Below are positions 830-64,000 of a DNA stretch of 64,000 nucleotides, piece by piece. Below the pieces are notes generated by a model. It searched no databases. It had not been told where the DNA came from and was given only the letters and a program-made list of their open reading frames with translations. How positions within the stretch are numbered: the stretch's first letter is position 1; each line of letters begins with the position of its first letter. The position numbers were made by a program, and so were the translations under genes. The DNA lies in IMG/VR virus record IMGVR_UViG_3300035181_001974; one strand, written 5' to 3'. This DNA is from a virus.

Positions 830-902
830 GTGCGAGTAGCTCAGGCAGAAGAGCACCAAGGATTATCCTTGGGGGTCGGTGGTTCAACTCCACCCTCGCG
901 CA
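830..902 (+). tRNA. tRNA, anticodon loop GATTATC (positions 34-36 = TTA; A at 33); possible UUA-anticodon tRNA
   Basis: acceptor GTGCGAG/CTCGCGC, D GCTC AGGCAGAA GAGC, anticodon stem CCAAG/CTTGG, T-arm GGTGGTTCAACTCCACC, CCA encoded. Confidence 0.4.
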
Positions 903-924
903 CCAGTCACAGCAAGTAACCAAA

Positions 925-24061: not shown

Positions 24062-24156
24062 GGACCCGTGGTGTAACGGGCATACACGGTGTTGCTGTTC
24101 CTCCATGTCAGGAGGTTACGGGCACCCGACAGGGCGGTTCGATCCCGCCGGGTCCA
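24062..24156 (+). tRNA. long (about 95 nt) class II-like tRNA, anticodon unresolved
   Basis: perfect acceptor GGACCCG/CGGGTCC, D GTGT/ACAC, variable-arm hairpin CGGGCACCCG, T-arm GGCGGTTCGATCCCGCC; 11 extra nt before a CCTCC/GGAGG stem with 6-nt loop ATGTCA. Confidence 0.35.
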
Positions 24157-24161
24157 CTAAT

Positions 24162-28481: not shown

Positions 28482-29151
28482 ATGGAAACTGTCATCATCG
28501 AGATCAGGGCCGCCGAGGGCGGCGAGGACGCAAGACTTCTCGTTCAGGAGCAGCTCCGGGCATACGCCAACGCGGCGGCCCGGAGGGGTCTTTGAGGCGA
28601 CTGTAATCGATGATCGACCAGGGATGGTGATGCTCTCTGTCTCCGGCCCAGGAACCCTGCAGACCTTTGCAAATGAAGGCGGCGGGCACAGGTGGCAGCG
28701 CGTTCCACCGACAGAAAAGCGTGGTCGTGTGCAAACGTCGACAGTGACGGTCGCGGTCTTAAACCCAGACACCGTCATCGGCCAGGCACTAGACCCCCGT
28801 GATGTGGAAATCACCACTGCCCGAGGCTCGGGTCCGGGCGGCCAAAATCGCAACAAGACAGAGTCGTGCGTCATCGCGGTCCACAAGCCCACCGGCTTTC
28901 AGGTTCGCATTGACAACGAGCGCTCGCAGCACCAGAACCGGGCGATGGCCTTCAAGGTCTTGGCCGCTCGCCTCTACGAGGCTGAGTCTGAACGGCTCTA
29001 CCGCGAGCGCTCCAACGAGCGCAAGCAACAGGTGGGCTCAGGTCAGCGCGGCGACAAGGTACGAACCTACCGGACACAGGACGACCTGGTCACTGACCAT
29101 AGGACAGGTCAGAAGTACAACCTGTCGAAGTGGCTCAAGGGTGACTGGTGA
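28482..29151 (+). CDS. prfB: peptide chain release factor 2 (prfB) with +1 programmed ribosomal frameshift; coding as join(28482..28592,28594..29151)
   Basis: N-terminal METVIIEIRAAEGGEDARL (PCRF) ending at in-frame TGA inside GGAGGGG-T-CTT-TGA-G (SD-like + CUU UGA shift site); +1 frame continues FEATVIDDR..., universal GGQ motif in RGSGPGGQNRNKTESC, RSQHQNR. Confidence 0.85.
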
Positions 29152-29192: not shown

Positions 29193-29654
29193 GTGTCAGC
29201 AAAGATCGACAGGTTCATCAATGAGTTCGCGTTCTTGTCGAACTTTCATCCATCCACCATCATCGTCGACGGCCGGCATTATGCCACGGTTGAGCATGCC
29301 TATCAGGCTGCCAAGACCCTAGACGAGACGCAACGTGAGATGGTGCGCAAGTCGAAGACGGCGGCCGAGGCCAAGAAGCTCGGCCGCTCTGTCACCCTCC
29401 GCGAGGATTGGGACCAGGTCAAGGTCGACTTGATGCGAAAGTTCGTCAAGGCCAAGTTCGAGAACCCGCTGCTCCGCGAGATGTTGCTGGCGACTGAGGA
29501 TGCTGAGCTCATCGAGGGCAACCACTGGAACGATAAGTTTTGGGGCGTTTGTCGCGGGCAGGGACAGAATTGGTTGGGTCGTATCTTGCAGGAGGTTCGT
29601 GATGAAATCAGGGCCGAAGTTGATGCAGAGTCAGCCCTCGATGACATTCCCTGA
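29193..29654 (+). CDS. NADAR (YbiA/DUF1768) family protein
   Basis: GTG start with GGAGG RBS; FLSNFHPS..HYATVEHAYQAAK..NHWNDKFWGV, a strong YbiA/NADAR signature. Confidence 0.75.
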   Translation: MSAKIDRFINEFAFLSNFHPSTIIVDGRHYATVEHAYQAAKTLDETQREMVRKSKTAAEAKKLGRSVTLREDWDQVKVDLMRKFVKAKFENPLLREMLLATEDAELIEGNHWNDKFWGVCRGQGQNWLGRILQEVRDEIRAEVDAESALDDIP

Positions 29655-30053
29655 CGCCTCGGGTCGCCTGTCACCAAAATACAGGTCACCGCCGAAGAGG
29701 ACCAACACGGGTGGCTACCGCGTCAAGCTCTTTCACGGGCTCGACCAGATTGGTTACGTCAATGTCTGTGAGTCGTTCGTTCGTGCGGCGAAGCGTAATG
29801 TCAAGGTCCTTGAGACGCACTCATTGCTGAAAAAGAATACCGTGGTCGCGGTCTCGGCATCGCCATGTGCGCGGCTGCCATCAAGTATGCCCTCGACAGA
29901 GGCAAGACGATCACCTCGTCATACTCGCCCAGCGCCTTCGCACAGCGCGTGTGGCGTTCCAAGCGATTGTCAGCGATGTTCTTTGTCACGAAGTTTGCGC
30001 GGAGGTGGTGGGTCTCGCTCTCGCGAGCTGTGAACGAAGCGACAGGAGGGTGA
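29641..30053 (+). CDS. GNAT N-acetyltransferase, reading frame split by -1 at an A5G run (29829-29835): programmed slippage, indel or pseudogene
   Basis: frame 1 29641..~29835 (MTFPDAS...KVLETHSLLKK); frame -1 continues EYRGRGLGIAMCAAAIKYALDRGK...SPSAFAQRVW (GNAT motif A/B) to TGA at 30053. Confidence 0.45.
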
Positions 30054-31790: not shown

Positions 31791-31948
31791 ACTGAACCTC
31801 GAACTTCCGATACTTATCAAGGCCGGTTATGCGCCCGCAAGACCTATCAACTCCCAAGACGCGCAAGCGTCCGAGATTCGGCGAAGAGCCGAGGGGGAAG
31901 CCCGTGCCGAAAGGCACGAGACCGATCCTTGACAAGCCGGAGGACACC

Positions 31949-32335
31949 ATGAGTGACGTGAAGCAGGTCATCGTCGTACGAAAGGACCTGAACATGAAAA
32001 AGGGCAAATTGGCCGCCCAGGTCGCCCATGCTTCGATGAAGTTTCTCGTTGACAACAACGAAGCGCAACGTGGAGACGAGGTCGTCATCAAGCTGACACC
32101 CGCAGAGGCCACATGGTTGTCGGGTTCCTTCACCAAGATCGTGGTGGGTGTGGATTCGGAAGATGCCTTGAAGGACCTCATCTTCAAGGCAGAAATTGAG
32201 GACGTCGAGGTGCATCCCATCATCGACGCCGGAAGGACAGAGTTCAATGGAGTTCCGACATTGACTTGTGCAGCCTTCGGACCATGCGAGGGTGCGCTGC
32301 TCGACAGGATCACAGGTAACCTGAAGTTGATTTGA
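31949..32335 (+). CDS. peptidyl-tRNA hydrolase, PTH2 family
   Basis: KQVIVVRKDLNMKKGKLAAQVAHASMKF and IDAGRTEFNGVPTLTCAAFGP match the PTH2 signature; RBS GGAGG. Confidence 0.7.
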   Translation: MSDVKQVIVVRKDLNMKKGKLAAQVAHASMKFLVDNNEAQRGDEVVIKLTPAEATWLSGSFTKIVVGVDSEDALKDLIFKAEIEDVEVHPIIDAGRTEFNGVPTLTCAAFGPCEGALLDRITGNLKLI

Positions 32336-34224: not shown

Positions 34225-34368
34225 CCAGCAAGTAATCACCACCAAGGCCGTCCCCAATGGCCTACATGTGAAAGCTTTTGTGATCGTGGCGTAGTGGTAT
34301 CGTACCACCGACGATCTAGGGCTATCGATGACATCGATGGCGACGAATGTTTTTCTGTGAAGAAAGTC

Positions 34369-34986
34369 ATGAAATCATATCCCTCAATCCCCTACGCCAC
34401 CGAGTGCCGAGTCCCAATCGTCGCCTTCGACAAGCTCGACGGGTCCAACGTCCGCGCCGAGTGGTCGCGCAAAAAAGGCTTCTACAAGTTCGGCACCCGC
34501 ACGCGGCTAGTGGACGCATCCGATCCTGTCTTCGGTAAGGTGCCCGGACTGATCAACGACAAGTACGGCAAGGGCATCGACGAGGTGCTCAAGGAATCGA
34601 AGTGGGTCTCGGCCTGCTGCTTCTTCGAATTTTGGGGGCCCAATAGTGCCTTCGGCATGCACGACCTCAAGGAAGACCAGACGGTAACCCTGATCGACGT
34701 GGCGCCCTTCGGCGCCGGCATTCTGGAGCCTGAGCTCTACCTGAAGTTGTTTGGTCACCTCGACCACGCCAAGGTCTTGTACGAAGGCGAAGTGACGGAA
34801 GCCTTCATAGAGAGCGTTCGGGACGGTTCGCTGCCCGGCATGACCTTTGAAGGCGTCGTCTGCAAAGGCAAGAACGACAAGAAAACCAAGGCACCCGTGA
34901 TGTTCAAGCAGAAGTCGCGGGCCTGGTTCGACAAGCTGAAGGCTTACTGCGGCGACAATAACGAGTTGTTCCGGACTCTACGGTAA
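34369..34986 (+). CDS. small nucleotidyltransferase-superfamily RNA ligase-like protein (KxDG)
   Basis: motif I FDKLDGSNVRAEW, downstream EFWGPNS and EGVVCKGKNDKK (motif IV/V-like); true start likely ATG 34369 (MKSYPSIPY). Confidence 0.55.
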   Translation: MKSYPSIPYATECRVPIVAFDKLDGSNVRAEWSRKKGFYKFGTRTRLVDASDPVFGKVPGLINDKYGKGIDEVLKESKWVSACCFFEFWGPNSAFGMHDLKEDQTVTLIDVAPFGAGILEPELYLKLFGHLDHAKVLYEGEVTEAFIESVRDGSLPGMTFEGVVCKGKNDKKTKAPVMFKQKSRAWFDKLKAYCGDNNELFRTLR

Positions 34987-35504: not shown

Positions 35505-35966
35505 GTGAAAAAAATCCGCATTGAGTTGAAGAACAAGGCGTTGGGCAAGCCCTTCAGGTTCTTCGATTCTGCCGAGGCGCTCTACCTCTGGCTAAACGAC
35601 GTGGGTGCAGGTCCCGATCCAGATGGCTCGTCAGTGGTGACGTTGTTGCCCGGTGACTTTCTTGAAGTTGAGTGGCGTGGTTGTGAGTTCGCTCACGAGG
35701 GAGCCGATCGCTATCGACGTCTCGACTACGTGAGGTTCGCCAAGGGCTCACCGACCAAGAACGCCTCTGGGCTGGTTGTCTCAGTCGATCACGGTTGGGT
35801 CGCTGATGATACGTTCATCTTTCGCGATATTGAAGACGAACTCACGCGCACCAGGCTGCTGACCTCTGAGGCTGAGTGGCGCCTCGATTTGGATGCTCTG
35901 TTCCAGGACGGCAGCGACGATCCAGATGAGGAGGATCCTGATGGAAGCGACGTTGAAGACGGGTGA
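35505..35966 (+). CDS. hypothetical protein with acidic C-terminus
   Basis: 153-aa ORF, GTG start, DDPDEEDPDGSDVEDG tail. Confidence 0.4.
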   Translation: MKKIRIELKNKALGKPFRFFDSAEALYLWLNDVGAGPDPDGSSVVTLLPGDFLEVEWRGCEFAHEGADRYRRLDYVRFAKGSPTKNASGLVVSVDHGWVADDTFIFRDIEDELTRTRLLTSEAEWRLDLDALFQDGSDDPDEEDPDGSDVEDG

Positions 35967-36236: not shown

Positions 36237-36860
36237 TCAAATCTTGTTCCTTGATCGCGGTTGCAGCGGAGGATATGGGTGTGGCATCGGCTTCGACTGG
36301 TGCACAATGTGTCGCGCAATCACCTTGACGTCAGGGTGTTTGTCCTGCAGGGCGCGGACTGCCTCAACATTCTTGCTCGAGTCATCAAAGAACTCAATCA
36401 AGTGCAGGTCATCACGCACGATGCGGGCATCGATCCAATTGGCTTTGGCCTGCGGGTTGGAGGTGCCCAGAGCAATGACCTCAATCCCGTCAAATCCTGC
36501 TTGATGCAGGAACTGATGAATGGGCGCTGTCGCGTGGCGTGCTGTCAGGATGACGACACCACTAGGTCCGTACTTGTCGTAGATGTTCTTTAGGACGCGG
36601 CCCGTCCAGACGTAGGCCTTGGGCTCGATCAACTGACCAAACTCAGTGAAGTCAAACTGCTCGTCGGGCGTAGGCTGGTAGACAGCAAATTCTCCCGGCA
36701 ACAATGACTTCCGCGAACCATCGGGTCGAATGACCCAGACCTTGGAACCTGTCTGCGCCAGAGTGTCATCGAAGTCGAACACACGCAGTTTTCGCGGGCC
36801 GATGACTTCCAGGACGAGACCCTCGACGCACTCTTTCAAGAGTTTCGTCTTGGATTGCAT
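36237..36860 (-). CDS. HAD-family polynucleotide 3'-phosphatase (T4 Pnk phosphatase-domain-like); no kinase P-loop seen
   Basis: DxDxT motif LRVFDFDDTLA, downstream VVILTAR and IEFFDDS motifs; start taken at the internal Met (MQSKTKLL). Confidence 0.55.
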   Translation of the reverse strand: MQSKTKLLKECVEGLVLEVIGPRKLRVFDFDDTLAQTGSKVWVIRPDGSRKSLLPGEFAVYQPTPDEQFDFTEFGQLIEPKAYVWTGRVLKNIYDKYGPSGVVILTARHATAPIHQFLHQAGFDGIEVIALGTSNPQAKANWIDARIVRDDLHLIEFFDDSSKNVEAVRALQDKHPDVKVIARHIVHQSKPMPHPYPPLQPRSRNKI

Positions 36861-36937
36861 GTATAATCGTACATGGTCTCGACGCAGTGTATTAGTCCGT
36901 CCCGGCATGGTATGCTAGAGTAACTAGGAGGCATGAG

Positions 36938-38209
36938 ATGAAGCCGTTGGTGTTGGAGTACCTGCGTTCCCATACGTTCCGTGAGCTCGAGGACGAGCAC
37001 GGTGTCTGTGCGCGGCCCAACTCGCGCTTCGATAAGTTCTCACTCAACTATGATCAGATCTTGGCGAAGTCGGGCAATGCCTTGATGGAACAGTGCCGCG
37101 GCATGGTGATTCGTCCATCTCGCGAGCAGACGGAGCAGTTCCTCCACGATGAGGCCCGGCGTGGTGGCGCGCCTCTGTCGACAGCAAAGTGGCGCGACCG
37201 CGTCGTAGGCGACTGCGAGCTGTTGGCCTGGCCCATGAATCGCTTCTACAACCACGGCGATGTCGCGGCCGCGGGGGTCGACTGGTCGGATCCCGAGCTC
37301 CGCGTCTACGAGAAGCTCGATGGCACGTGTTGCATCGTCTACTGGGACGAACTTCATGGTCAGTGGCACGTCGGTACGCGGTCGGTTCCCGAGGCTGACC
37401 TGCCGATCCGCAAGGATGACATGTCGATCGGCAACATGACGTTCCGCGACCTGTTCTTCAAGGCCCTGATCGAGACCCGTGAGGCGAACTCGGGCCAAAA
37501 GCTAGACTGGGTTCCGAGCGACTTCGATCAGGTCGTTCATCTCAACAAGGAACTGACGTACGTCTTCGAGCTAACGAGCCCGCACAACCGCATCGTGGTT
37601 CGCTATGACGAGCCTCGTGTGACGCTGTTGGCGATTCGTCACACGGCATCGGGCAATGAATCGGTCATCGAGGAGCTGCAACTGCAGCACGTCAACCGGC
37701 CGCAGCGTTGGAAGTTGTCGGAACCGAAGGCGCTGGCAGCGTTTGTTGAGGCGGCGGACCCATCAAAGTTGGAAGGCGCGGTCGTCGTTGACTCGAATTT
37801 CAACCGTCAGAAGGTCAAGTCTCGGGCCTGGGTCCTGTCTTCCAAAGCGAAGGACCTAGTGACTGTCTCGAAGCGATCCGCAGTCGAGGCCATCATCCGC
37901 GGCACGATTGATGACGTCATCCCGTTGGTCGAGGCCGACGTGGCTGGGGAGCTGCGTTCGATGCAGGCTGCGGTGCGCGAGTATCTCATCTCTGTCGATC
38001 GCAACTTCGAGGCCTGGCGTGATTACGCAGCGGGTTCGCGGAAGCTCTTCGCTGAGAAGGTGATGCAGTCCAACGATTGGGCGGCGCCCTACTTCAACTT
38101 GTGGGAAAGCCGTGCGGCCAATGCCCGCGAGTGGTGTGAGTTGATGGCGTCCAAGGAAAAGCTCAACGCCTCGTCCTACGACACCATCCTGAATAAGATC
38201 GGCCGCTGA
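36938..38209 (+). CDS. ATP-dependent RNA ligase (Rnl-type)
   Basis: motif I YEKLDGTCCIVYWD, 423 aa, further nucleotidyltransferase motifs (FELTSPHNRIV, EGAVVVD); RBS TAGGAGG. Confidence 0.7.
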   Translation: MKPLVLEYLRSHTFRELEDEHGVCARPNSRFDKFSLNYDQILAKSGNALMEQCRGMVIRPSREQTEQFLHDEARRGGAPLSTAKWRDRVVGDCELLAWPMNRFYNHGDVAAAGVDWSDPELRVYEKLDGTCCIVYWDELHGQWHVGTRSVPEADLPIRKDDMSIGNMTFRDLFFKALIETREANSGQKLDWVPSDFDQVVHLNKELTYVFELTSPHNRIVVRYDEPRVTLLAIRHTASGNESVIEELQLQHVNRPQRWKLSEPKALAAFVEAADPSKLEGAVVVDSNFNRQKVKSRAWVLSSKAKDLVTVSKRSAVEAIIRGTIDDVIPLVEADVAGELRSMQAAVREYLISVDRNFEAWRDYAAGSRKLFAEKVMQSNDWAAPYFNLWESRAANAREWCELMASKEKLNASSYDTILNKIGR

Positions 38210-49964: not shown

Positions 49965-51805
49965 CAGACCACCTTACCCAGAATGTCGACTTCGGGGTAA
50001 CGTACCTCGAAGATTCCGCCAGGAGGCGGCAAAATGATTCCCCTAACCGTGTTGCTGGCCACGTCAAAGGTGTCGTTGCTGTAAGTTCGGTTGTTGACGG
50101 TGCCCGTGATGCTGTTGAACTGCACGCGGTCGACCGCAACGATGCCAGAAACCGAGAAGATCGTGTTGACGATGTCAGAGACGATCAAAGGCTGATCGAT
50201 GTGGTAGTTCTTGATGTTGAACGTCGACTGCAACTTGGTCAGGACGTTTTGCAGCACCGTGCTCTTGTTCAAGGCAGGATCAACGACGACCTCAAAGTCC
50301 AACGTCAAGTTGATGATCCGAGCATCCAGGATGTCGATGGCGTCTGAGATCATCCTGTAGGGATTCAAATACTTCTGCAGGTTGGTCTTCAGAGTGTCAG
50401 GCGACGTGATTAGCTTCTGTTCTGGTGACCGCGAGACGATGAACAGCTGCGTGGCCAGTGGGTTGTTCGAATTCGACTTGACAGATGCGCGAAAGACGCG
50501 ACCGAAGTTGGATGGAATCGTGTAGACTCGAGCGACCAGATCCTCACGGGAAACGATGCGCTCTTGGCTGTTCCTGACCGACGGGATCAAGGCCTTCAGG
50601 TCGTCCGCCGAGGGCGCGTCCTCACCGCCAGATGCTTGGATCAGGTTGGCACACTCCATCGTGTTGCGGACCTGCGCCGCGATGGCAGCAGGCGGATTGC
50701 CGGGAAAAAAGAGGTTGGCGATCTTGATCGTCTTGATGCTACCTGCAGAGACGTTGTGATTCAGGCCGCCGCCGTAGCGATAGTCGACGGTCACTGTCGT
50801 GTTGACAGCAGCCACGCCCAGAGTTTTGGTCTGCAGCAACTGCTGCGGATTGACTGAAATCCGCGAGAAGGTGCGAGAGTACGGAAACGAGATCGCAAAC
50901 TCTGAGGGATCGGGAATGACGTCGTCTTCTAGACTGTCAGCGCTGCCGCCGCCGAACGTTAGCACTGTGCGCCGTGTTGCCAAATCGACGTCAGAGGTGT
51001 ACCTGTAAGGCGCCGGAATGACCTTGATCGATTCTGGTACGATGTCATTGTCACTGGCGGTGTTCAGGACGTTGCGGTAAACGACATCGTGGCTCAGGGC
51101 CGAGACCTGGTAGTAGATGTTGCCCAGCGTGTCTGTGACGTTGATAATGTCAGTGACGTTAGCGTTGCTCAACGTCAACTGCCTAAACGGGACAAACGCT
51201 TGACTGATCGGAAAGGCGTCCTGTCCAACCTTGCCTGAAACGCAGAGGCCTGTTTGGGCCATGATGAAAGTTCGAGGCACGCCGGCCGGAGACTTGTTTC
51301 CCACTTTGACGGTGGCCTTGAGTGATCCATCGGCGCGTCGCGCGCCGAAGTCGATGTCCTCGAGGAGGATGAACTCAGTTCCGTTATCAGCGGTGAAGAT
51401 CGTGTTCATCTGCATCACCGGGATGCAGTCGGGCCGCGGGCCGATTGAGTTGCCGATGGCGGCAGCCGGAACCTGGATATAGACTGTGACAGGAACCAAC
51501 GCGGGTGCTGCTCCAGTGATCGGGACGCCTGCTGTTCTGAGGTGACGCTGAATGTTGTTTGTCTCGACTGCAGTCTCGGGATTCAGTTCCGAGTACTGGT
51601 GATCGAGGTAGAACGACATGTTGTCGCCCACGTAGGCCGCCATGTCAAGGAACAAGCCACCCAGTGACGCCTCTGAAAAGTCACGCAACCTGTCAGGGTA
51701 GTACAACCGAGCGTACTCCAACAGCTGCGCGCGCAGACTGTCAAAGTCTTTGCCCAAATACTTCCGTTGCCTGACAGGCACGATGTCGTCACGCTTTAGC
51801 GCCAT
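49964..51805 (-). CDS. baseplate wedge protein, gp6 / Baseplate_J-like
   Basis: 613 aa, lies immediately upstream of the gp25-like gene as in T4-like and Mu-like baseplate modules. Confidence 0.5.
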   Translation of the reverse strand: MALKRDDIVPVRQRKYLGKDFDSLRAQLLEYARLYYPDRLRDFSEASLGGLFLDMAAYVGDNMSFYLDHQYSELNPETAVETNNIQRHLRTAGVPITGAAPALVPVTVYIQVPAAAIGNSIGPRPDCIPVMQMNTIFTADNGTEFILLEDIDFGARRADGSLKATVKVGNKSPAGVPRTFIMAQTGLCVSGKVGQDAFPISQAFVPFRQLTLSNANVTDIINVTDTLGNIYYQVSALSHDVVYRNVLNTASDNDIVPESIKVIPAPYRYTSDVDLATRRTVLTFGGGSADSLEDDVIPDPSEFAISFPYSRTFSRISVNPQQLLQTKTLGVAAVNTTVTVDYRYGGGLNHNVSAGSIKTIKIANLFFPGNPPAAIAAQVRNTMECANLIQASGGEDAPSADDLKALIPSVRNSQERIVSREDLVARVYTIPSNFGRVFRASVKSNSNNPLATQLFIVSRSPEQKLITSPDTLKTNLQKYLNPYRMISDAIDILDARIINLTLDFEVVVDPALNKSTVLQNVLTKLQSTFNIKNYHIDQPLIVSDIVNTIFSVSGIVAVDRVQFNSITGTVNNRTYSNDTFDVASNTVRGIILPPPGGIFEVRYPEVDILGKVV

Positions 51806-51854
51806 TGGTTCACCGTCAACCGTAAGTATCGTATCCTAACGCGTGGGCTACCGC

Positions 51855-52328
51855 TCACATCGCGTAGAGATTGATCTCAAGCAGTTTATTGACGATGTTC
51901 AACGTTGGGACGCTGTAGGTGATCTTGATGTTAACGTGAGCAGTGTTCTTGTTGTCAGTGCGATCCGTGTTGGACAGGTAGTTCTCGAGGGAGACGTAGG
52001 GCATCCACCGCGAGACCGCGTTGGAGATTCTGTCAATCGCCTTGCCGTCGAAATCATCGAGTGAGACGAACTCTGCCATCAGAGGTCGCAAGTTCCCACC
52101 AAAATCGTAGAGGCCCAAGCGCTCGCCCCAGTTGGTCAACAACAGGTTGCGCAGGTTATCGTGTACAGTGTCAGCCAGATTGTCGTAGGTGGCCACGATC
52201 TCGGTCCCGTCGCCTTCGTTCAATTGTAGAGGCGTTCGGATGCCAATGGGCGTCTTGCTGCTCTCGAGTGTCTCGACGAGCTTTTGCTCTTGCGTCTTGC
52301 CAGAGCTCTTGAATGAATACACGGCCAT
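51855..52328 (-). CDS. baseplate wedge protein, gp25 / GPW-like
   Basis: 157 aa; motif TNWGERLGLYDFGGNLRPLM matches the gp25 GERxxxPxFG signature. Confidence 0.7.
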   Translation of the reverse strand: MAVYSFKSSGKTQEQKLVETLESSKTPIGIRTPLQLNEGDGTEIVATYDNLADTVHDNLRNLLLTNWGERLGLYDFGGNLRPLMAEFVSLDDFDGKAIDRISNAVSRWMPYVSLENYLSNTDRTDNKNTAHVNIKITYSVPTLNIVNKLLEINLYAM

Positions 52329-52344
52329 GATCTATCTACCATCC

Positions 52345-53184
52345 TCAAGCCGCCGGAGGCGTCTCTCCGTTTGACCGAGCCACGGCACCCACCATCCCAC
52401 CGGGCGCAGCACCCAATGTTGATCCGATGGCGGCATAGACGATGCAATTTGCAGTCTTACGCAGTAGAACCAACGCAACAGTTGCCATCATTGTCGGCAT
52501 GGGCGTCAGCTTGAAGGCCGGATTACCCAGGACGAGCGGGCCCAATGCGTCGGTAAATGCCTTGCAGAGTCCCATCTTGGGAAATTGTAGGATGGCCGTC
52601 GGAATACTAAGCGTGAAATTCAGGAAGACTTCGGGCAGCTTCGGGACAAGGTCGAACACCGCCGTCAGGGTAAACGATAGCCTGGAATCATCAATCTGAG
52701 GCAGCTCGAACTTTGGCATCGGGATAGCAGGCGACACCGGAGGCGGGAACTGGATGTCCAGCGAGGGCAACTTTGCCACGATTTCTGGAAGGGCTAGTTT
52801 AGCAGCGATCTTGGGCGACCATGCTGGAATATCGGGAGGCAGTGACACGTCAATGTCAAAGTCGATTCCCAGCTTGAGGCCGAGCGCGATCGGATCAACG
52901 ACGGGTAGAAACTTGAAGTCGCTATCAAGGTTCAGGCCTCTTGCGATCGACTCGTAGAGGTTGAAGACGTATCGGTGGAACTCTGGGAACTTCGAGGCAT
53001 CTTCGAGAGGAATCGAGTCAGATCCAGGCGTGGGTGGCACTTCAAAACACAGCAACTTGCCATCATCGATGCCAGTGACGCCATTGACGAGAATGCTCTT
53101 GACCTCCTTGATGAAGGAGTCCTTTGCAGATTGCGTCAGTTTTTCCTTTGCGTCGAGGATGCCTGCCGCTTCCTGTGACTTCAT
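52345..53184 (-). CDS. baseplate component (start set at internal Met to avoid 130-nt overlap)
   Basis: track ORF 52345..53310; Met at FDEMKSQEA gives an ATGA junction with the upstream gene. Confidence 0.4.
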   Translation of the reverse strand: MKSQEAAGILDAKEKLTQSAKDSFIKEVKSILVNGVTGIDDGKLLCFEVPPTPGSDSIPLEDASKFPEFHRYVFNLYESIARGLNLDSDFKFLPVVDPIALGLKLGIDFDIDVSLPPDIPAWSPKIAAKLALPEIVAKLPSLDIQFPPPVSPAIPMPKFELPQIDDSRLSFTLTAVFDLVPKLPEVFLNFTLSIPTAILQFPKMGLCKAFTDALGPLVLGNPAFKLTPMPTMMATVALVLLRKTANCIVYAAIGSTLGAAPGGMVGAVARSNGETPPAA

Positions 53185-54635
53185 TTCATCAAAACTTTCT
53201 TGGCGTATTGGCCTTGACCTGGCGCGCCTGTTCCCTGCTGCCCACCCATGGAGTCCGTGATTGGAATCGCGGACACTTGGCCGTCGATGGGCGTCGGACT
53301 GTCCTGACACAGGACCGCAAGATTCGCATCATCGCCGCCCAACTTGACGTAGCCCTTCTTCGAAGGCCTGTGGATGATGTCTCCGTTGCTTCTGATCACG
53401 ATGGCGGCATAGTTGTCAGGGTCGTTCAGCGCCTTGGCATTGCCTCTTGCGTCGGTCTCGTAGCCCGAGACGAGAATTTCGACGTCCATTCGAGCCACGA
53501 TCCTGACCTTGTCGGTGCGAATCAACACGGCGCCGGCACCCTTGCTCGGATCCTTGACGTCTGGAAAGTTGCTGGCATTGTAGCCATCGAGTCCAATGTT
53601 CTTGTCGATCATGGTGCGCTGGACAATGAGGACCCGAGAGCGGTCGTTCTTGAGGTCCGGGTCGCCCTCCTTTTCAGAGAGCTCCGCGCCTGATTTGCCC
53701 AACTCCTTATTGAAGTCTGACTTGTCGAGTTTCTTGTTGGTGACCTCCTTGCCTCGCGTGTCGTCTGTCTGTCCACGGCCAGCGACCAGGTCGATCATGC
53801 CTGCATCGCCGTCCATGTCAGAGTCAAGCTTAGCGGGCACCGTCCCCTTCTTTGGATCAGCGGGCCTCGTCAGGTCGGCAGCGGGTCCCACGCGGTCAGT
53901 GCCCAGGACGATCAACGTATTGTTGCTACCCTCAAAAGCAAGGTCCCCGGGCCTCTTACGGTACCTGGGAATTGCCTCGTATTTCATCACCTGGCTACCA
54001 TCTGAGTTTGTCAACAATTTTTCGTAGATCGCCTCGTCATCACTGGGCACCACGTGGCTGCTGGCCACGGTGTAACGCTCGCCTTCTTGGATATCGACGC
54101 GGCCGTTGCGGAACTCGTACTTGGCCTCGGCAGTTCCGTCAAAGACGTCTTTGATCTTGGGCGTAAATGATGGGTCCCAGGCCCGCGGCCCATGAGTGTG
54201 GTTGACATCGTCAACGTGACCCAACTCGGTGATCTTGCAAAACCAGTAACCCAATGAGGTCTCAACGGTTCCCGGAGCCTCGTACATCACCCAAACGTGT
54301 TCACCTGGTTTACATGGCATTGCCAAGTGACTCGAGAAGAATGGAAACAGAAAGACGGGTGCCTCGGTGGCTCCGTCCAGTATCCGTTGAGCGATGATGG
54401 CATTGCGCGGTAGCACGGCAGCGTACTCCATGTTGGCGACGCCGATGCCGTGCTCCCAGAAGTCGAGCTTAGCCTTGTCAATGATCGTTGGGTCGAAGAC
54501 CACGTCCAGGACAACATAGCGATAGAACGCTGGAAACTGAGCGTGTGTGCCGTGTTCCAGGGCCGACCGGTCCCGCATGATGCGGCCGGCTTCGCCCTCG
54601 ACGATGTGCTTCGTTAGCTTGGCATAGTCTGTCAT
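53181..54635 (-). CDS. baseplate hub / central spike-like protein
   Basis: 484 aa, position at head of baseplate module. Confidence 0.4.
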   Translation of the reverse strand: MTDYAKLTKHIVEGEAGRIMRDRSALEHGTHAQFPAFYRYVVLDVVFDPTIIDKAKLDFWEHGIGVANMEYAAVLPRNAIIAQRILDGATEAPVFLFPFFSSHLAMPCKPGEHVWVMYEAPGTVETSLGYWFCKITELGHVDDVNHTHGPRAWDPSFTPKIKDVFDGTAEAKYEFRNGRVDIQEGERYTVASSHVVPSDDEAIYEKLLTNSDGSQVMKYEAIPRYRKRPGDLAFEGSNNTLIVLGTDRVGPAADLTRPADPKKGTVPAKLDSDMDGDAGMIDLVAGRGQTDDTRGKEVTNKKLDKSDFNKELGKSGAELSEKEGDPDLKNDRSRVLIVQRTMIDKNIGLDGYNASNFPDVKDPSKGAGAVLIRTDKVRIVARMDVEILVSGYETDARGNAKALNDPDNYAAIVIRSNGDIIHRPSKKGYVKLGGDDANLAVLCQDSPTPIDGQVSAIPITDSMGGQQGTGAPGQGQYAKKVLMK

Positions 54636-54664
54636 GTCCTACGTACCTAATCGACCCAGTGCGT

Positions 54665-55042
54665 TCAGCCACCCTTCTTGATGCGCTCGAACATATCTTC
54701 AGGATCGATCTCTTCATCAGCACGTTCAGCCTTGGCAATCAACTCCGCCAGCTTGATGAGTTGATCGTTAGCCTTGCTCATGCGTTCGATATAGGTGGCG
54801 ATTGTCTTACCGTGAACGGCGTGTTCGGAACTCTTGTCCGACACGATTTTGACCAGGCGAGCGAACATGGCGTAGGAGTTCTGGCGATCTGAGATTGCAT
54901 TCTCGTAGATCTCCAACCACAGCTTGCGCTTCTTGTCGTTTAGGCTTTCGATCTGGTTGAGTAGGCCAGAAAAGTCCTTAATGCGCTCCTCGACGGTGCG
55001 ATCCTCGACTTCAACCAGATCATTCTTTTCTTCGACCGCCAT
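54665..55042 (-). CDS. hypothetical acidic protein (possible late-transcription accessory factor)
   Basis: 125 aa, immediately downstream of gp55-like gene. Confidence 0.35.
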   Translation of the reverse strand: MAVEEKNDLVEVEDRTVEERIKDFSGLLNQIESLNDKKRKLWLEIYENAISDRQNSYAMFARLVKIVSDKSSEHAVHGKTIATYIERMSKANDQLIKLAELIAKAERADEEIDPEDMFERIKKGG

Positions 55043-55050
55043 GATCTTCC

Positions 55051-55863
55051 TCAGAACAGGCGAAACTTAGCGTCGCCCTTCAACTTGCGATAGTGCTTCT
55101 TGACCATCTGCATCGTCGTTGTCAACTGCTTAGGACTCAGGCCCGACAGTTCACGCATGTAGAGCAGGATGGCACTCTTGCTCAACAAGTCAACATCATC
55201 AACGTTTTCGAAGATGGTGATGATGGAGTTGATGCACGCCAGCTCATTCTCTGTCTTGACGCGGGTCCTGATTTCGTACAACATCTTCAGGACGCCAGCT
55301 GCGCTGGTCTCATTCTCCATGATCATCTCAGCAGACGGGACCATGTTGTGCTCTTCGACGATGTTGAACTCATGAGCATTCAGCGAGTTGGGATCGTCCA
55401 GCGACACCGAACGCTTGACGCGCTGTGCCTTCTGCTTTGTCCTGATGATCAACCAGTTCTTGGCGACCACGTTGAAGTACGAAAAAGCGTTGGTCCCTCG
55501 CGTGCCGTCGAACTTGTGAATCGTCTCAAAGAGGAAGTTGACGCAGTCGTTCTTCAAATCATCGTAGGTGTCGTGCAGGCTGGTGAACTTGTGAATGTTG
55601 ATCAGGTTCTCTGTCAACTTCTCAAACGCTGGCATGATTTCATTGACGTAGAGCCTCTCGCGTTCCTTCCTGTCAGTTTCCTTCTGGTAGGCGCAGATCG
55701 CGGCCTGCGTATTTTGATTGAAGTACATCCTCGACTGCTTCGCAGCCTTCTTCTGTTCCTCCGTCTTGGGCTCTTCCTTCTCAGGGGGAGAAGATGGGAC
55801 GATTGCGGCGAGTGCTGCCTTCTTTGCGGGTGATTTCTGGGTCGTCTTTTTGCGGGCGGCCAT
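55051..55863 (-). CDS. gp55-like late-transcription sigma factor
   Basis: segment DCVNFLFETIHKFDGTRGTNAFSYFNVVAKNWLIIRTKQKAQR parallels T4 gp55 [39 protein letters not shown]; basic N-terminal extension. Confidence 0.55.
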   Translation of the reverse strand: MAARKKTTQKSPAKKAALAAIVPSSPPEKEEPKTEEQKKAAKQSRMYFNQNTQAAICAYQKETDRKERERLYVNEIMPAFEKLTENLINIHKFTSLHDTYDDLKNDCVNFLFETIHKFDGTRGTNAFSYFNVVAKNWLIIRTKQKAQRVKRSVSLDDPNSLNAHEFNIVEEHNMVPSAEMIMENETSAAGVLKMLYEIRTRVKTENELACINSIITIFENVDDVDLLSKSAILLYMRELSGLSPKQLTTTMQMVKKHYRKLKGDAKFRLF

Positions 55864-56172
55864 CTATTTGTTGCCTTCCTCGTCGTCCTGAATCGGCTCG
55901 ACAATCAAGTTTGCAACAAGCAGTATGGCGTCACGGGACATTTTGATGTCCTGCACGAGCTCACGGACGACGGGTTCGTCGCTCATGACCTCGAGCTCTG
56001 CCCGTGCGGCCGCTCGTTGATAGCACGTGTTCAACACGTCAAGCGCTACCTCTGTCTGATCGACGATTTCCTGCATCTTGTCTTGGTACTCGAGGTTCCT
56101 CTTTACGCTAACGTAGATGAAGAACGCAAGTGTCAGACAGAGCAGCGACAGTATGACAATCGTCGTAATCAT
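55864..56172 (-). CDS. small membrane protein (ends TAG, abuts gp55-like ATG)
   Basis: N-terminal TM helix ITTIVILSLLCLTLAFFIYV. Confidence 0.4.
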   Translation of the reverse strand: MITTIVILSLLCLTLAFFIYVSVKRNLEYQDKMQEIVDQTEVALDVLNTCYQRAAARAELEVMSDEPVVRELVQDIKMSRDAILLVANLIVEPIQDDEEGNK

Positions 56173-57332
56173 CAGAGCACGTCTTTCAGGAGTTCGTCAT
56201 ATTGTTTGGCGATCTCCGGGAAACTGAAGTGTCCTCGCAGGCGAGTGGCTAGCTCGTCGGCCCACTCCTTCGGGATGGTATGAGAGTTGCGAAACTTGAC
56301 GATTCGCTTCTTGAAGTCCTCCTCGGAAGGATTGGCCCACTTGGAGCCCTTCACGAAGATCTGGCCATCGATCCTGGACGGGTGTACCTCACCGAGTTGA
56401 TAGTAGATGCTAACGTACTTGCCCAGCTTCATAAAATCGAGGTGCCCTGACCATCCGGTTGCGATGACTGGTAGGCCACTGGCAGCTGCCTCGAGGATCG
56501 GCAATCCATAGCCTTCGCCCCGCGTCAAGGTGACCAGGCCCTTGATCTGTGGGTGACGGTACAACGCTGCTACCTCAAGGTCATCCATGTCACCGTGAAG
56601 CAGGTGAACCTTGGGATACGGACCCTTGCGAGCCTCAGCCAGGACGCCCGACAGGACATTCTTGATGATGTTCCTGTCGATCTTTGTATTACGCCCGGCG
56701 TTGGTCTTGATGACGATGCCCACGTCCTTGTCATCCTTGAATGCTTCACACAGCCATTTCAGGGTGAAGAAGGTGTTCTTGCGATCGTTGAACGGGTTGT
56801 TACCCGTCAACTGACCAAAAACCAAGAAGTTGAACTTGGTTGAGAACTCGGGCAACTTAGGCAGCTTGTCGTCGTCCAACAGCACCGAATCAACGAACGA
56901 CTCAGGAACCACTGCGATGGGCGTCGACACCTTGCCCGTGCTTGTCAGGTTGGCCAACACGTGCTGACTTGGAACGATGATCTGTGACATCCTGTTGCAG
57001 TATTCAATCCACGATGGGTTGCAGCGATCTGTCTCGACACCGGCTGTCATGCCTACGTTCCAAGCAGCAACCTTTGGGTCCCACTCATTGGGCAACTGCA
57101 GCTGAAATGACACGTCACTATGGGCGTCAGGGCCGACCGAGCGCTTCATCACTTCGCCCACCAGACCTTCATGTGCGTTGCTGTCGAGCAACCAAGGCGT
57201 GTCACCCCAAGGCAGCAAGTGAAATTTGACATCGATACCGGGCTTGTCGAGCAACCAACGTGCAACCTGGCGAGCGTGAACGCCGTATCCTGATTGGGTC
57301 AACGTTGGACCCCGAAGAATCACAGTCTTCAT
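56172..57332 (-). CDS. glycosyltransferase
   Basis: Rossmann-like GT pattern; track ORF 56172..57386 trimmed to internal Met MKTVILRGP to remove a 50-nt overlap. Confidence 0.5.
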   Translation of the reverse strand: MKTVILRGPTLTQSGYGVHARQVARWLLDKPGIDVKFHLLPWGDTPWLLDSNAHEGLVGEVMKRSVGPDAHSDVSFQLQLPNEWDPKVAAWNVGMTAGVETDRCNPSWIEYCNRMSQIIVPSQHVLANLTSTGKVSTPIAVVPESFVDSVLLDDDKLPKLPEFSTKFNFLVFGQLTGNNPFNDRKNTFFTLKWLCEAFKDDKDVGIVIKTNAGRNTKIDRNIIKNVLSGVLAEARKGPYPKVHLLHGDMDDLEVAALYRHPQIKGLVTLTRGEGYGLPILEAAASGLPVIATGWSGHLDFMKLGKYVSIYYQLGEVHPSRIDGQIFVKGSKWANPSEEDFKKRIVKFRNSHTIPKEWADELATRLRGHFSFPEIAKQYDELLKDVL

Positions 57333-57336
57333 CTGA

Positions 57337-58590: not shown

Positions 58591-58620
58591 CTCTTTTGCT
58601 GCACGAAAGTGCTGTCTCAG

Positions 58621-59322: not shown

Positions 59323-59586
59323 CCCAGGGAGTGAATGAAGCTACACACATTGCGTCACACACCCGTCGAGGCGGTTCACTTAACAGAACCTTCACAGCAA
59401 ATTTGTCATCATCAAGTTGAAGGCACGCAACGACAAGACCGATCGTTTCGAAATCCAGATACGCTACGTCATCTTCGTCTTTGCGCTTCAAGCCTTCAAA
59501 TGTGCGGTAAGCAACTGTCGGAGGCAAAGATCCGTCTAGGTGGCTGACAATGAAATTTATAGTTGAGCCGGGCTTGATCGGTGTTA

Positions 59587-60417: not shown

Positions 60418-60898
60418 TCCAACAATGTATCAACGTTTCTGCGCGAAGTTCATCGAGCCACCAACCCAGTGAATGAAGTACTCCTGCTCTGTCTCGTGAT
60501 ACATCGGTCCACAGGGCACCATGCGCCATGTACCGCCATAGCGATGATACTCATGACACAGATGATAACGTTGAAGCGGTTCTTCTGGCTCATCGCGCCG
60601 GAGTCGAAACTATTCAGCGAGCCTCTCTAGACCAGAGTTGTTGTAGAAGGCTGGATCACTCACGGAGCTCAAGCATTTGCTCGAGGCTACAACGCTTGCC
60701 GCAGTGATCACAGATAAAGGCAGTTTCCATGACGCTCCCGAAGGGACTTGAACCCTCAACGCATGGTGTTAGAATCCGTCACTCTGCCATTGAGTTACAG
60801 GAGCAGTGCCCCGAGTGGGAGTCGAACCCACGATCGCGGTTTTAGAGACCGCAGCTTTAGCCCGCTAAGCTACCGAGGCAAACCTCAAAATTGTACGG

Positions 60899-61548: not shown

Positions 61549-61905
61549 TCAACCGATTCGTTCTCCCCAGGGAACTCCCATACACGTGGCAAGTGTAACT
61601 GTGCCCGTCACCGGGTCATGTCCTGCTAGAAGCATTCCGTGTGATTCAACGCCCATCATCTTGCGAGGCGCAAGGTTGACCACGGCCAACACCCGAGTGC
61701 CGACCAACATCTCCACGTGGTAGCTCTTAGCGATGCCGGCCATAATGGTGCGATAGCCGATCTCGGATCCAAAGTAGACCTCGAGCTTGACAAGTTTGTC
61801 GCTCTTGGGCACTGCCTCTGACTTAGTGATTTCGCCCACACGAATATCGACCTTCAAGAAGTCATCGAAGGTGATTGTGTCGGGCGCCTTGTGTTCGTCG
61901 CTCAT
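61549..61905 (-). CDS. tRNA-binding domain protein (Trbp111 / CsaA / EMAP-II-like)
   Basis: FLKVDIRVGEITKSE...KLVKLEVYFG...VGTRVLAVVNLAPRKMMGVESHGMLL classic OB-fold tRNA-binding signature. Confidence 0.7.
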   Translation of the reverse strand: MSDEHKAPDTITFDDFLKVDIRVGEITKSEAVPKSDKLVKLEVYFGSEIGYRTIMAGIAKSYHVEMLVGTRVLAVVNLAPRKMMGVESHGMLLAGHDPVTGTVTLATCMGVPWGERIG

Positions 61906-62261
61906 GACAGTTCCTTGAGCGCCAGTGGCAGGTTCTTACAGAGCTCTGCCGTCTTGGGATGTGGCTCGATGGCGATCGCCGTGATGGCGCCTCCCACGTT
62001 AGGTTCACGGAAAGCACTCCAACGCAGGCCATGGTCCTTGGCAGCGGTGATAAGACGCATCAGCTCTACCTCATCGGCCACTGACAGCAACGCGAGGTAG
62101 TTAGAGTTGGTAAACCACTCACCATCGCGATCAGGATGATCAGCCGTGAACTGTCGAATGGCATGGCAAGACTGCACGGCCTGGTAACCAGGCGCAATGT
62201 CTCGCCGCGTGACGAGGTACAATTTATCCCCCGTCTTAACCTTGTGGTTTCCACCACTCAT
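61902..62261 (-). CDS. second PTH2-fold (peptidyl-tRNA hydrolase 2-like) protein
   Basis: KLYLVTRRDIAPGYQAVQSCHA and NVGGAITAIAIEPH parallel PTH2 motifs; start at internal Met MSGGNHKV directly after the upstream stop. Confidence 0.45.
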   Translation of the reverse strand: MSGGNHKVKTGDKLYLVTRRDIAPGYQAVQSCHAIRQFTADHPDRDGEWFTNSNYLALLSVADEVELMRLITAAKDHGLRWSAFREPNVGGAITAIAIEPHPKTAELCKNLPLALKELS

Positions 62262-62879: not shown

Positions 62880-63359
62880 CTACTTGAGGTTGTCGTGGAC
62901 CCAAGCCACAAATGTCTTGTTCGACAAGGCATACTGACGGCGCCGTTTGATCGTCTCGACGCAGACGTGGCCATTCCAACCTGTCAACTCATGAAGGGCC
63001 ATCGCGGTCACAATCCCGCTGCGATTGTACCCTGACATGCATGTGACTAGGACCTTCTTGCCTGACCTGACGTGGCTGGCTACCTCTCGGGCGGCCGCCT
63101 GCCATGTCGGCAAGAAGTTCATAAGTCGATGTGGACGTTCATCGTCATCGCCCGGTGCGAGGATGACATGAAGACCCGGGTACCATGAGGCGTCCTGGTG
63201 ATCACTTGCTGCGAGCACCACGACATCAAAACCCTTATCACGCAGCAGGCTGCCTGCCGGCGGAATGGCACCCTGCCAAAGGGTACCGTGGATGTTGTTG
63301 ATGTCCAATACGTTCATGATGTCATCGTAATCCGGATCGTCGTCCATGTCAACCCTCAC
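62880..63359 (-). CDS. dual-specificity / tyrosine-type protein phosphatase (CX5R)
   Basis: VLVTCMSGYNRSGIVTAMA active-site loop; ATGA overlap with NAMPT gene. Confidence 0.65.
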   Translation of the reverse strand: MRVDMDDDPDYDDIMNVLDINNIHGTLWQGAIPPAGSLLRDKGFDVVVLAASDHQDASWYPGLHVILAPGDDDERPHRLMNFLPTWQAAAREVASHVRSGKKVLVTCMSGYNRSGIVTAMALHELTGWNGHVCVETIKRRRQYALSNKTFVAWVHDNLK

Positions 63360-64000
63360 AGGGCTGCGCGGGCTCGCACCTCATCGAGGGTGTATTCTTT
63401 CAGGACCTCACCGTCCAGGAACACCGTCTCCATGATTGAGTACGGCAGCTTCTCTTTGCCAACTGGGACTCGGCCCGTGGTGAATCGCCCCTCAAAGACC
63501 TCGAGGTCCAGACGCCCCTTCTTCGAGCGCTTGCCCGAGTCGGTCACTGGTTCCTTGAAGACGTCGATCTCAAGGCCGTCTGCCACAATATGACTACACT
63601 TCATGGCGAACTTCTGCGTATCGCGGTTGTGTTGCTGCAACAACGCGCCTCCCATGCCGAAGGCGATGTTGGTCGCCGAGAAGCCGGCCTTCACCGCCGC
63701 GTCCAGGATCGCATAGATGCTGTCACGGTTGATTCCGTCACCTTGGATGACGCGAACGTTGTTCAGGACCTTGTAGCCCTTCGAGTTGACAGTTGAACCG
63801 AACTTGGACTCCAAGAGTCGCAGACAGTTGAGCACCACGGTTGGCGGGTGACCCGAATCCGGACGTACCACCACGATGGCGCCCGAATCCTTGACCTCCT
63901 GACGCAGGGTCTCGCCCCAGATGTGCTCACAGGCATTGTAGATGTCGTACGAGTCGCTGACCACCGCGACCAGTGCTCCAGGCTTAGCGAAGTTCCGTAG
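63356..64000 (-). CDS. nicotinamide phosphoribosyltransferase (NAMPT), C-terminal part; gene continues beyond the window
   Basis: VRPDSG, VIQGDGI, FGMGGALLQ motifs typical of NAMPT. Confidence 0.8.
   Translation of the reverse strand, partial: LRNFAKPGALVAVVSDSYDIYNACEHIWGETLRQEVKDSGAIVVVRPDSGHPPTVVLNCLRLLESKFGSTVNSKGYKVLNNVRVIQGDGINRDSIYAILDAAVKAGFSATNIAFGMGGALLQQHNRDTQKFAMKCSHIVADGLEIDVFKEPVTDSGKRSKKGRLDLEVFEGRFTTGRVPVGKEKLPYSIMETVFLDGEVLKEYTLDEVRARAAL

Follow-up and report, generated by a model that had tools for sequence, protein, structure and literature searches.

All NADAR families, including E. coli YbiA, hydrolyze ADP-ribosylated guanine (G-ADPr) on DNA and RNA, and the YbiA-type enzymes additionally hydrolyze ADP-ribosylated cytosine (C-ADPr) (PMC11125620, PMC11833690, PMC12945103). 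The types differ in a residue of the last strand, which is Glu in YbiA, Asp in DarG1/BC4488 and His in gp30.3 (PMC11125620). The ribose-binding and catalytic residues are E43/K50 in the NADAR of Phytophthora nicotianae (PnNADAR) and E88/K95 in that of E. coli C7 (Schuller et al., PMC11543638). During infection, DarTG1 is neutralized by divergent phage NADARs (PMC11825919). NARP2, which consists of Nampt and Nmnat, was shown to defeat Thoeris and DSR2 (bioRxiv 10.1101/2024.02.11.579819). Counter-defence by NADARs, NARP2 and the NAD+-centred gene repertoires of jumbo phages are matters already published. Here we analyzed a stretch of viral DNA of 64,000 nucleotides (IMG/VR record IMGVR_UViG_3300035181_001974, in the following called the window), which carries a NADAR gene overlapped by a GNAT-like acetyltransferase sequence as well as genes for NAMPT and for a CX5R phosphatase at its 3' end. 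In a preliminary description these genes had been grouped into a single NAD/ADP-ribose module. In our assessment the window probably contains two unlinked anti-defence loci, the NADAR gene and a NARP2 operon, together with one dead gene, the GNAT, and a phosphatase resident in its phage clade. The genes on which this view is based are the following.

29193..29654, plus strand: YbiA-type NADAR, 153 aa, intact, a predicted base-ADP-ribose glycohydrolase
63356..64000, minus strand: C-terminal 214 codons of NAMPT (PF04095, E=1e-37), stop TGA at 63358-56
62880..63347, minus strand: atypical dual-specificity (CX5R) phosphatase, 155 aa, reading frame open to GTG 63359

The NADAR gene starts with GTG, with GGAGG 5 nt upstream. 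Its product matches Pfam PF08719 with 102.7 bits (cut-off 35.1; E=3.1e-29) over profile positions 9-163 of 163 and falls in phrog_1017. Among solved structures, E. coli YbiA (2B3W; E=1.5e-24, 57/131 residues or 44% identical) is the nearest, followed by the Phytophthora NADAR 8BAU. When aligned to these two structures, the catalytic Glu and Lys, seven residues apart, correspond to E34 and K41 in the motif TVEHAYQAAK, and both are invariant across 81 viral NADAR homologues. The Glu of the last strand is E108 in AELIEGN, which aligns with LVE of YbiA and LYE (E125) of PnNADAR; Glu is found at this position in 64 of the 81 homologues. W73, K77, D114 and W117 are also present. The protein does not belong to the gp30.3 family, as it reaches only 24.6 bits with PF08010 (cut-off 36) and has Glu and not His at the diagnostic position. 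An identical NADAR protein is encoded in two Logan assemblies. Thus, the family match, the similarity to YbiA and the catalytic residues bear out the identification of this gene as a NADAR. By homology, the enzyme would act as an N-glycohydrolase cutting ADP-ribose off guanine and, as a YbiA-type protein, off cytosine, and it may strip the ADP-ribose set on phage DNA and/or RNA by host DarT1-, YarT- or pierisin-like toxins. Its function is most likely to undo, enzymatically, the base ADP-ribosylation that the host inflicts on phage nucleic acids.

The NAMPT gene is cut by the end of the window. A contig from the public assemblies (L003), which shares its Logan contig of origin with the NADAR locus, is identical to window positions 51549-64000 (12,452 nt, zero mismatches) and continues for about 7.9 kb beyond the window. 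On this contig the full NAMPT has 462 aa (NAMPT_N and NAPRTase domains), reaches to about 64744 in window-equivalent coordinates and is 59% identical to annotated phage NAMPTs. The PF04095 match and the full-length protein confirm the earlier assignment of NAMPT. An NMNAT partner had also been surmised a short way beyond the 3' end, and the extension beyond position 64000 indeed revealed a gene for a 336-aa NMNAT-Nudix protein directly upstream of NAMPT, ending 53 nt before it (L003 6099-7109, window-equivalent ~64797-65807). It combines a CTP_transf_like domain (an NMNAT-type HIGH nucleotidyltransferase, 53.8 bits) with a NUDIX domain (67.1 bits). Of the 80 closest IMG/VR viral NAMPT loci, 72 have such a gene upstream and on the same strand. 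Among the genes called on L003, over about 7 kb on the upstream side of NAMPT and about 12 kb on its downstream side, there is no Prs-like gene (phosphoribosyl-pyrophosphokinase, Adps). Judged by domains and gene order, NMNAT-Nudix and NAMPT form a canonical NARP2 operon of the KVP40 NadV/NatV type, not NARP1. By homology to KVP40 NadV/NatV, it would rebuild NAD+ from nicotinamide, phosphoribosyl pyrophosphate and ATP after depletion by defences such as Thoeris, DSR or SIR2-HerA. The proposal that the genes of the window counter NAD+-using defences agrees with the published work on NARP2 and on phage NADARs.

The identification of the CX5R phosphatase likewise held, on account of its match to DSPc (PF00782; 36.6 bits, cut-off 33.5), its P-loop VTCMSGYNRSG (C103-x5-R109-S110) and its fold. 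C103, R109 and D67/D68 of the PGDDD acid loop are invariant in 19 homologues, with the Asp about 35 residues upstream of the P-loop. The AlphaFold model (pLDDT 93.5) was matched by Foldseek to DUSP14, DUSP5, DUSP9 and DUSP22 with TM values of 0.74-0.76 and a probability of 1.00. The protein is predicted to be a catalytically competent atypical DUSP, with a protein phosphatase as the default reading. An Asn invariably precedes the P-loop Arg (CxxGxNRS), a resemblance to RNA 5'-phosphatases such as BVP, PIR1 and Mce1 (HCTHGxNRTG); the fold search ranks protein DUSPs first. The likely start codon is ATG 63347, with GAGGG 5-6 nt upstream and located 8 nt past the NAMPT stop, in agreement with public gene calls and homologues. 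The alternative GTG 63359 would overlap the NAMPT stop as GTGA. An exact protein look-up with the 159-aa GTG-start version returned nothing, and the public call starts at ATG 63347. Because the phosphatase starts there and the NAMPT stop is at 63358-56, the two genes are not fused by ATGA as described before.

The dead gene follows the NADAR gene and is split over two reading frames.

29641..29835, plus strand: N-terminal half of the GNAT-like gene in frame 1, from ATG 29641, with a 14-nt overlap with the NADAR 3' end
29830..29835, plus strand: frameshift site, a run of five A then G (AAAAAG), one base fewer than in the orthologues
29829..30053, plus strand: C-terminal half in frame 0, containing RGRGLG and SSYSPSAxAQRVWRSKRL, stop at 30053

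ATG 29641 is the only plausible GNAT start, the NADAR stop being at 29652-54. GNAT motif A (EYRGRGLGIAM...; EYRGRGLGIAMCAAAIKYALDRG) sits in frame 0 and is unreachable from this ATG without a -1 shift. In tblastn searches with the intact orthologues P0020-22, a frame-1 high-scoring segment pair covers window positions 29698/29716 to 29829/29835 and a frame-0 pair begins at 29829; the frame-0 pairs show 55-59% identity to P0020-22 and, over a shorter span, 53% to P0023, likewise intact, with E values down to 3e-29. In the codon alignment with the orthologous genes of L026 and L094 the window reads GAG ACG CAC TCA TTG CTG AAA AA_ GAA TAC. The frameshift region is identical in L001 and L002, which stem from two sequencing runs and whose assemblies agree across 12.5 kb. 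Intact orthologues exist in L026 (4431-4847; a 138-aa open reading frame, L026/L027), with the same 14-nt overlap and followed by tRNA-Leu(CAG) as in the window, and in L094 (5001-5384; 127 aa), where the gene overlaps that for NADAR in the order release factor...NADAR-GNAT...PTH2. Since the alignment runs over two frames, the A run has lost a base, intact orthologues exist, the assemblies are identical and the putative slippage site is not conserved, we regard the GNAT as a pseudogene in this phage. The 14-nt overlap is ancestral and the gene has been inactivated here by a 1-nt deletion; therefore, the GNAT is not counted as a working part. Of the overlapping GNAT described before, what stands is that a GNAT-like family overlaps NADAR; it is not one open reading frame here, and the overlap is of 14 nt and not of the ATGA type. 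The translational coupling reported for the pair reflects the ancestral arrangement, but the GNAT is frameshifted in this phage.

The joined 137-aa window sequence scores 18.7 bits on GNAT models, below the cut-off of 20.7, while orthologue P0022 passes PF00583 (Acetyltransf_1) with 29.9 bits and P0020 scores 18.5. The predicted structure of an orthologue (pLDDT 68) matches GNAT folds only, at a TM of about 0.5, and does not point to any one GNAT subfamily. With four clusters in 5.8 billion proteins, the family is very small. Pattern scans of metagenomes for the frameshift site with A5 and with A6 gave no matches. A second frameshift in the GNAT N-terminus, where frame 0 (...IQVTAEEDQHGW...) resembles ISVTPKENFTDY, was considered and rejected; tblastn gave just noise in this part of frame 0, so that one frameshift suffices.

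Between the NADAR gene and NARP2, which are encoded on opposite strands, lie 33 kb that include tail and baseplate genes. Both loci would counter host NAD+-consuming immunity, yet they are not one operon or module, and there is no indication of an exchange of intermediates between them. Around the closest viral NADARs (82 loci for the presence within 4 kb of PTH2, a peptidyl-tRNA hydrolase, 76 for direct adjacency), 29 of the 82 loci have PTH2 inside that distance, 18 of the 76 carry it as the next gene downstream, and NAMPT is found within 4 kb in 1 of about 80 (L084). The single module proposed earlier thus resolves into two unlinked loci.

The distribution of the phosphatase points in the same direction. 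No homologue was found in 50,697 GenBank phages, 19 protein clusters were detected in 5.8 billion proteins, and a scan of IMG/VR with the single sequence gave nothing; the profile scan of IMG/VR yielded 80 phosphatase loci. The phosphatase follows NAMPT in 3 of the 80 NAMPT loci, all close relatives, and NAMPT is not found within 5 kb in any of the 61 more distant phosphatase loci. About 22 loci of the clade share the order UDP-glucose dehydrogenase ... phosphatase ... p115-PTH2b-tRNA_bind-HD-PDDEXK-glycosyltransferases. NARP2 is upstream of the phosphatase in about 12 of these 22 and missing in about 10 (phosphatase only in L087/88, L091/92, L175, L176, L179-181, L187 and L188), and L095 and L099 have NARP2 only. 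In IMGVR_3300044712_001255 NARP2 and the phosphatase gene are about 230 kb apart. In L177 (4446-4958) the phosphatase is preceded only by short remnants, one NMNAT-like (~50 aa) and one NAMPT-like (~105 aa), of an apparently decayed NARP2, which supports gain and loss in this slot. A Macro-domain gene, absent from the slot of the window phage, is found in relatives at these positions.

L093 6447-6956: Macro-domain gene
L095 5370-5870: Macro-domain gene, directly after NAMPT
L096 6199-6726: Macro-domain gene
L097 5819-6304: Macro-domain gene
L098 5856-6365: Macro-domain gene

Macro is also present in L178, L183, L184, L190 and L193 and follows the phosphatase in about 10 of the 22 loci. NARP2, phosphatase and Macro are gained and lost independently of each other within a single variable slot, and the phosphatase is, on most of the evidence, a resident of this slot of the clade, not a NARP2 component. 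The pairing of NAMPT and phosphatase noted earlier is confined to one phage clade in which each gene also occurs without the other. More distant Macro homologues adjoin NAMPT in L100, L117, L156, L162 and L166/167.

Another reading concerns the target of the NADAR and draws on its neighbours on the plus strand.

28630..29151, plus strand: truncated RF1-like release factor with PCRF and RF-1 domains, GGQ motif and PPT at the RF1 PxT position
31829..32335, plus strand: PTH2-type peptidyl-tRNA hydrolase (PF01981, E=3.9e-29)
35505..35966, plus strand: 'c2', third gene of the order NADAR-PTH2-c2, 28-39% identical to its relatives in tblastn

The release factor is directly upstream of the window NADAR and is also upstream in L007, L008, L009, L016, L019 and L094. 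The c2 gene has no Pfam or PHROG match, and its tblastn matches are the gene after PTH2 in L011, L018, L024, L029, L034 and L050. In 18 IMG/VR loci (including L011, L015, L018, L020, L021, L024, L028-30, L033, L034, L045-47, L050, L053 and L057) a plus-strand cassette NADAR-PTH2-c2, with c2 of about 157 aa, is located between minus-strand structural genes; NADAR identity among these loci is 50-100%, and many of the contigs have no tRNA genes nearby. The window keeps the order (29193, 31829 and 35505) with tRNAs, small open reading frames and an RNA ligase inserted between, and a HAD-like gene on the opposite strand follows c2 as in L018. The NADAR might accordingly act on RNA of the translation apparatus and not on DNA, as part of a translation-rescue cassette NADAR-(small GNAT)-PTH2-c2. 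In such a scheme, NADAR would remove ADP-ribose from toxin-modified tRNA or rRNA bases and PTH2 would recycle peptidyl-tRNAs dropped from stalled ribosomes, the tRNA genes, RNA ligases and release factor having accreted around the cassette. We consider this possible but unlikely. It is favoured by the conservation of the gene order in the 18 loci and its persistence in the window despite the insertions, by the clearing of G-ADPr from RNA by NADARs and the modification of tRNA by ScARP/Scabin (PMC11833690, PMC12945103), and by the proposal that PTH2 serves jumbo phages in ribosome rescue (PMC7824862). However, the flanking structural genes are common to the 18 loci, so that the adjacency may be inherited synteny of one lineage, and no base-directed, NADAR-sensitive RNA ADP-ribosylating defence is known in vivo. 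Furthermore, cultured phages carry homologous NADARs among nucleotide-metabolism genes and without PTH2. Since the link is absent around the NADARs of cultured phages, it is a feature of the lineage that may reflect inherited synteny or else a functional cassette. We found no literature linking NADAR with PTH2. If the rescue scheme held, it would provide a physiological phage-host context for RNA base ADP-ribosylation and its reversal by NADAR; the conserved neighbourhood with PTH2 and c2 is a hint that the protected target is RNA or translation.

The arrangement of the variable slot raises a further alternative, in which the phosphatase, with Macro in relatives, would be an accessory of the NARP2 island that dephosphorylates an ester derived from NAD(P) or ADP-ribose (ADPR) to feed NAD+ recycling; 2'-phospho-ADPR from NADP cleavage, ADPR-1''-phosphate and NADP+ would be candidate substrates. 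The recurrent order NMNAT-NAMPT-phosphatase-Macro in L096-98, L178, L183, L184, L190 and L193, the 4-nt overlaps of phosphatase and Macro genes in L093, L097 and L098 and the invariant catalytic Cys, Arg and Asp are consistent with this idea, which we nevertheless regard as unlikely: the phosphatase stands alone in many clade members, all 61 distant homologues are without NAMPT, the fold best matches protein DUSPs, cultured phages do not have the phosphatase, and NARP2 is complete without it.

Quite unlikely, in our estimation, is one integrated NAD/ADP-ribose pathway of NADAR, GNAT, NAMPT (with NMNAT) and phosphatase, with NADAR and Nudix assigned to ADP-ribose processing, the phosphatase to the trimming of a phosphorylated intermediate, and NAMPT and NMNAT to the rebuilding of NAD+. 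All four gene types are present and NMNAT-Nudix was found as predicted, NADAR and NAMPT occur together in four related IMG/VR contigs, and for jumbo phages, NAD+-centred sets that include NADAR, Macro, Nudix and NAMPT have been described (PMC7824862). Against this stand the distance and opposite orientation of the two loci, the rarity of NAMPT near NADAR, the frameshift in GNAT, the absence of the phosphatase from 77 of 80 NARP2 loci and of NARP2 from 61 of 61 distant and about 10 of 22 clade phosphatase loci, as well as published knock-ins that show NARP2 working as a two-gene unit.

Very unlikely is a role of the NADAR in metabolic damage control, as a YbiA-like N-glycosidase acting on reactive riboflavin-pathway intermediates and without part in an ADP-ribosylation conflict. 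The closest solved relative is YbiA, and some phage homologues are annotated as riboflavin-related or are fused to GTP cyclohydrolase II; but Pfam scans detected no riboflavin gene in the window, E. coli YbiA itself removes ADP-ribose from G and C in DNA and RNA in vitro (PMC11125620, PMC12945103), and a gene for a YAcAr (PF10686) SLOG domain, predicted in the literature to use NAD+, lies about 0.5-1 kb upstream of NADAR in ten relatives (L007, L008, L009, L010, L016, L017, L019, L026/27, L071), though not in the window. Production of the GNAT by programmed -1 frameshifting at G AAA AAG (29829-29835; ...THSLLKK|EYRGRGLG...) is highly improbable, for although AAA AAG counts among the classic slippery pairs of bacteria, a GC-rich hairpin of 9 bp (-18 kcal/mol) begins 6 nt downstream and the joined product aligns gap-free with the orthologues, the hairpin is no stabler than shuffled sequence (z=0.8; 164/200 shuffles fold at least as well), the heptamer begins with G and not A, an upstream Shine-Dalgarno-like stimulator is missing, the orthologues have ordinary in-frame codons so that the shift is not conserved, and the tRNA-Lys(CUU) of the phage would presumably reduce slippage on AAG.

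Several points weigh against our view of two unlinked anti-defence loci, a dead gene and a clade-resident phosphatase. YbiA-type NADARs have also been reported in the clean-up of riboflavin intermediates, and in one study YbiA-like proteins were considered mostly housekeeping (PMC11825919). At least four related genomes carry both NADAR and NARP2, with about 35-195 kb between the NADAR and NAMPT genes in four of them. Because Macro follows the phosphatase in many NARP2-positive relatives, NAD/ADP-ribose genes are over-represented in the slot; such genes adjoin the phosphatase more often than expected of a random slot, and a functional link to ADP-ribose metabolism is possible. Finally, low-level -1 ribosomal slippage at G AAA AAG could yield some GNAT, for which we see little likelihood.

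The remaining genes of the window characterize the phage and its tRNA-rich surroundings.

830-905, plus strand: suppressor-type tRNA with anticodon UUA (ochre), one copy
60731-60879, minus strand: suppressor-type tRNAs with anticodon CUA (amber), two in tandem
24062-24157, plus strand: tRNA with a four-base anticodon, one copy (ARAGORN)
34294-34986, plus strand: Rnl2-like ligase (weak match)
36237-36908, minus strand: HAD-like phosphatase, DxDxT motif present in a homologue
36938-38209, plus strand: Rnl1/T4-type RNA ligase
56172-58590: two GT4 glycosyltransferases
60899-61372, minus strand: RelA/SpoT-like HD_4 protein, after the tRNA-binding gene
61549-61905, minus strand: CsaA/EMAP-type tRNA-binding gene, overlapped by PTH2b
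61902..62261, minus strand: second PTH2-like gene (PTH2b; PF01981 32 bits, phrog_1866), downstream of the phosphatase

The 64 kb contain 46 tRNA genes. Apart from the two RNA ligases, the tRNA-binding protein and the HD protein, a sigma-70 factor and an ATP-dependent DNA ligase are encoded, as well as a gp25-type baseplate protein and large tail-fibre-like reading frames. Neither locus has a near relative among the 50,697 GenBank phages by megablast; the window sequence recurs in the Logan assemblies SRR11727985 and SRR11727740 and in JGI metagenomes, and the phosphatase protein is also found on a 309-kb contig. From this gene content, the missing GenBank relative, the metagenome matches and the 309-kb contig it follows that the source is an uncultured jumbo-type tailed phage. 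PTH2b is 73-88% identical in L095-L099. The stop codons of about 54 window genes are TGA (39), TAA (12) and TAG (3); with this usage and with reading frames that are intact in the standard code, there is no sign of stop-codon recoding in the window. Beside amber and ochre suppressor tRNAs, a truncated release factor is unexpected company. The ligases and the HAD-like phosphatase are interleaved with the tRNA arrays and resemble a tRNA-repair set, beside which Tpt1/KptA was not found. In the window, where many reading frames are without any Pfam match, none matched ADP-ribosyltransferase (ART), Tpt1/KptA, NAD-dependent ligase, Macro, SIR2 or Prs. Beyond the window, at L003 15-5568 (window-equivalent ~66338-71891), a sugar-nucleotide block of NAD-dependent epimerase/dehydratase, DegT aminotransferase and UDP-glucose dehydrogenase is located upstream of NARP2; together with the GT4 genes it suggests glycosylation of virion or DNA. 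Hint/LAGLIDADG (intein) signatures occur in the PDDEXK nuclease or glycosyltransferase gene of relatives (L088 4080-6840, L093 10170-12450), and the window copies (59587-60417 and 57337-58590) are without them.

Compared with known systems, the window phosphatase shares with the atypical DUSPs (DUSP14, DUSP22, DUSP23, DUSP28 and the archaeal Tk-PTP) the fold, the CX5R signature and the PGDDD acid loop. It differs by an identity of 15-26%, by a P-loop TCxxGxNRS with Thr for His and the invariant Asn, and by its occurrence in uncultured phages only. The small GNATs TacT1, AtaT and GmvT, which are tRNA-acetylating toxins, are among the best structural matches of the intact orthologue and have the R-x-x-G-x-G loop in common with it, whereas the phage family, of about 127-144 aa, always overlaps the NADAR gene, and the model does not separate it from aminoglycoside or protein acetyltransferases.

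The NAD+-centred sets that Iyer et al. (2021, PMC7824862) described for jumbo phages comprise the same scattered NADAR, Nudix, NAMPT/NMNAT, Macro and YAcAr SLOG genes, with PTH2 and RNA repair. That survey contains neither the NADAR-PTH2 adjacency nor a NADAR-overlapping GNAT nor a DUSP beside salvage genes; the minor additions made here are, besides the abundance of YbiA-like NADARs in phages, the NADAR-overlapping mini-GNAT family, the NADAR-PTH2-c2 neighbourhood and the NARP2/DUSP/Macro variable slot. The window operon has the arrangement of NARP2 and of KVP40 NadV-NatV, NMNAT (HIGH nucleotidyltransferase)-Nudix followed by NAMPT on one strand and no Prs-like Adps. The atypical DUSP that follows in the window and the Macro gene that follows in its relatives do not belong to NARP2 as described. 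The eye-catching pair of NAMPT and phosphatase is lineage synteny, and in this respect the finding has mainly been tidied up; the assortment of NARP2, DUSP and Macro in all combinations provides a natural experiment on accessory enzymes of NAD+ reconstitution.

AdfN (T4 gp30.3, Bas32, Bas60) resembles the window NADAR as an orphan in a lytic-type phage with an expected enzymatic reversal of base ADP-ribosylation. The window protein is not of the gp30.3 type, its PF08010 score being sub-threshold and Glu replacing His, and it may work alike. With the YbiA-type NADARs, E. coli YbiA and the Chondromyces crocatus YbiA that is the antitoxin of YarT, it shares a single 'naked' fold of about 150 aa with E34/K41 and E108, and it differs from them as a phage-encoded orphan without an adjacent ART toxin in an island of tRNA, PTH2 and release-factor genes. 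Almost no YbiA-like phage NADARs were reported by Johannesman et al. Overall, these proteins, thought to be nearly absent from phages, are common there, as homologues of the window NADAR are found in 308 IMG/VR matches (up to 67% identity) and in 620 GenBank phage records (up to 51% identity).

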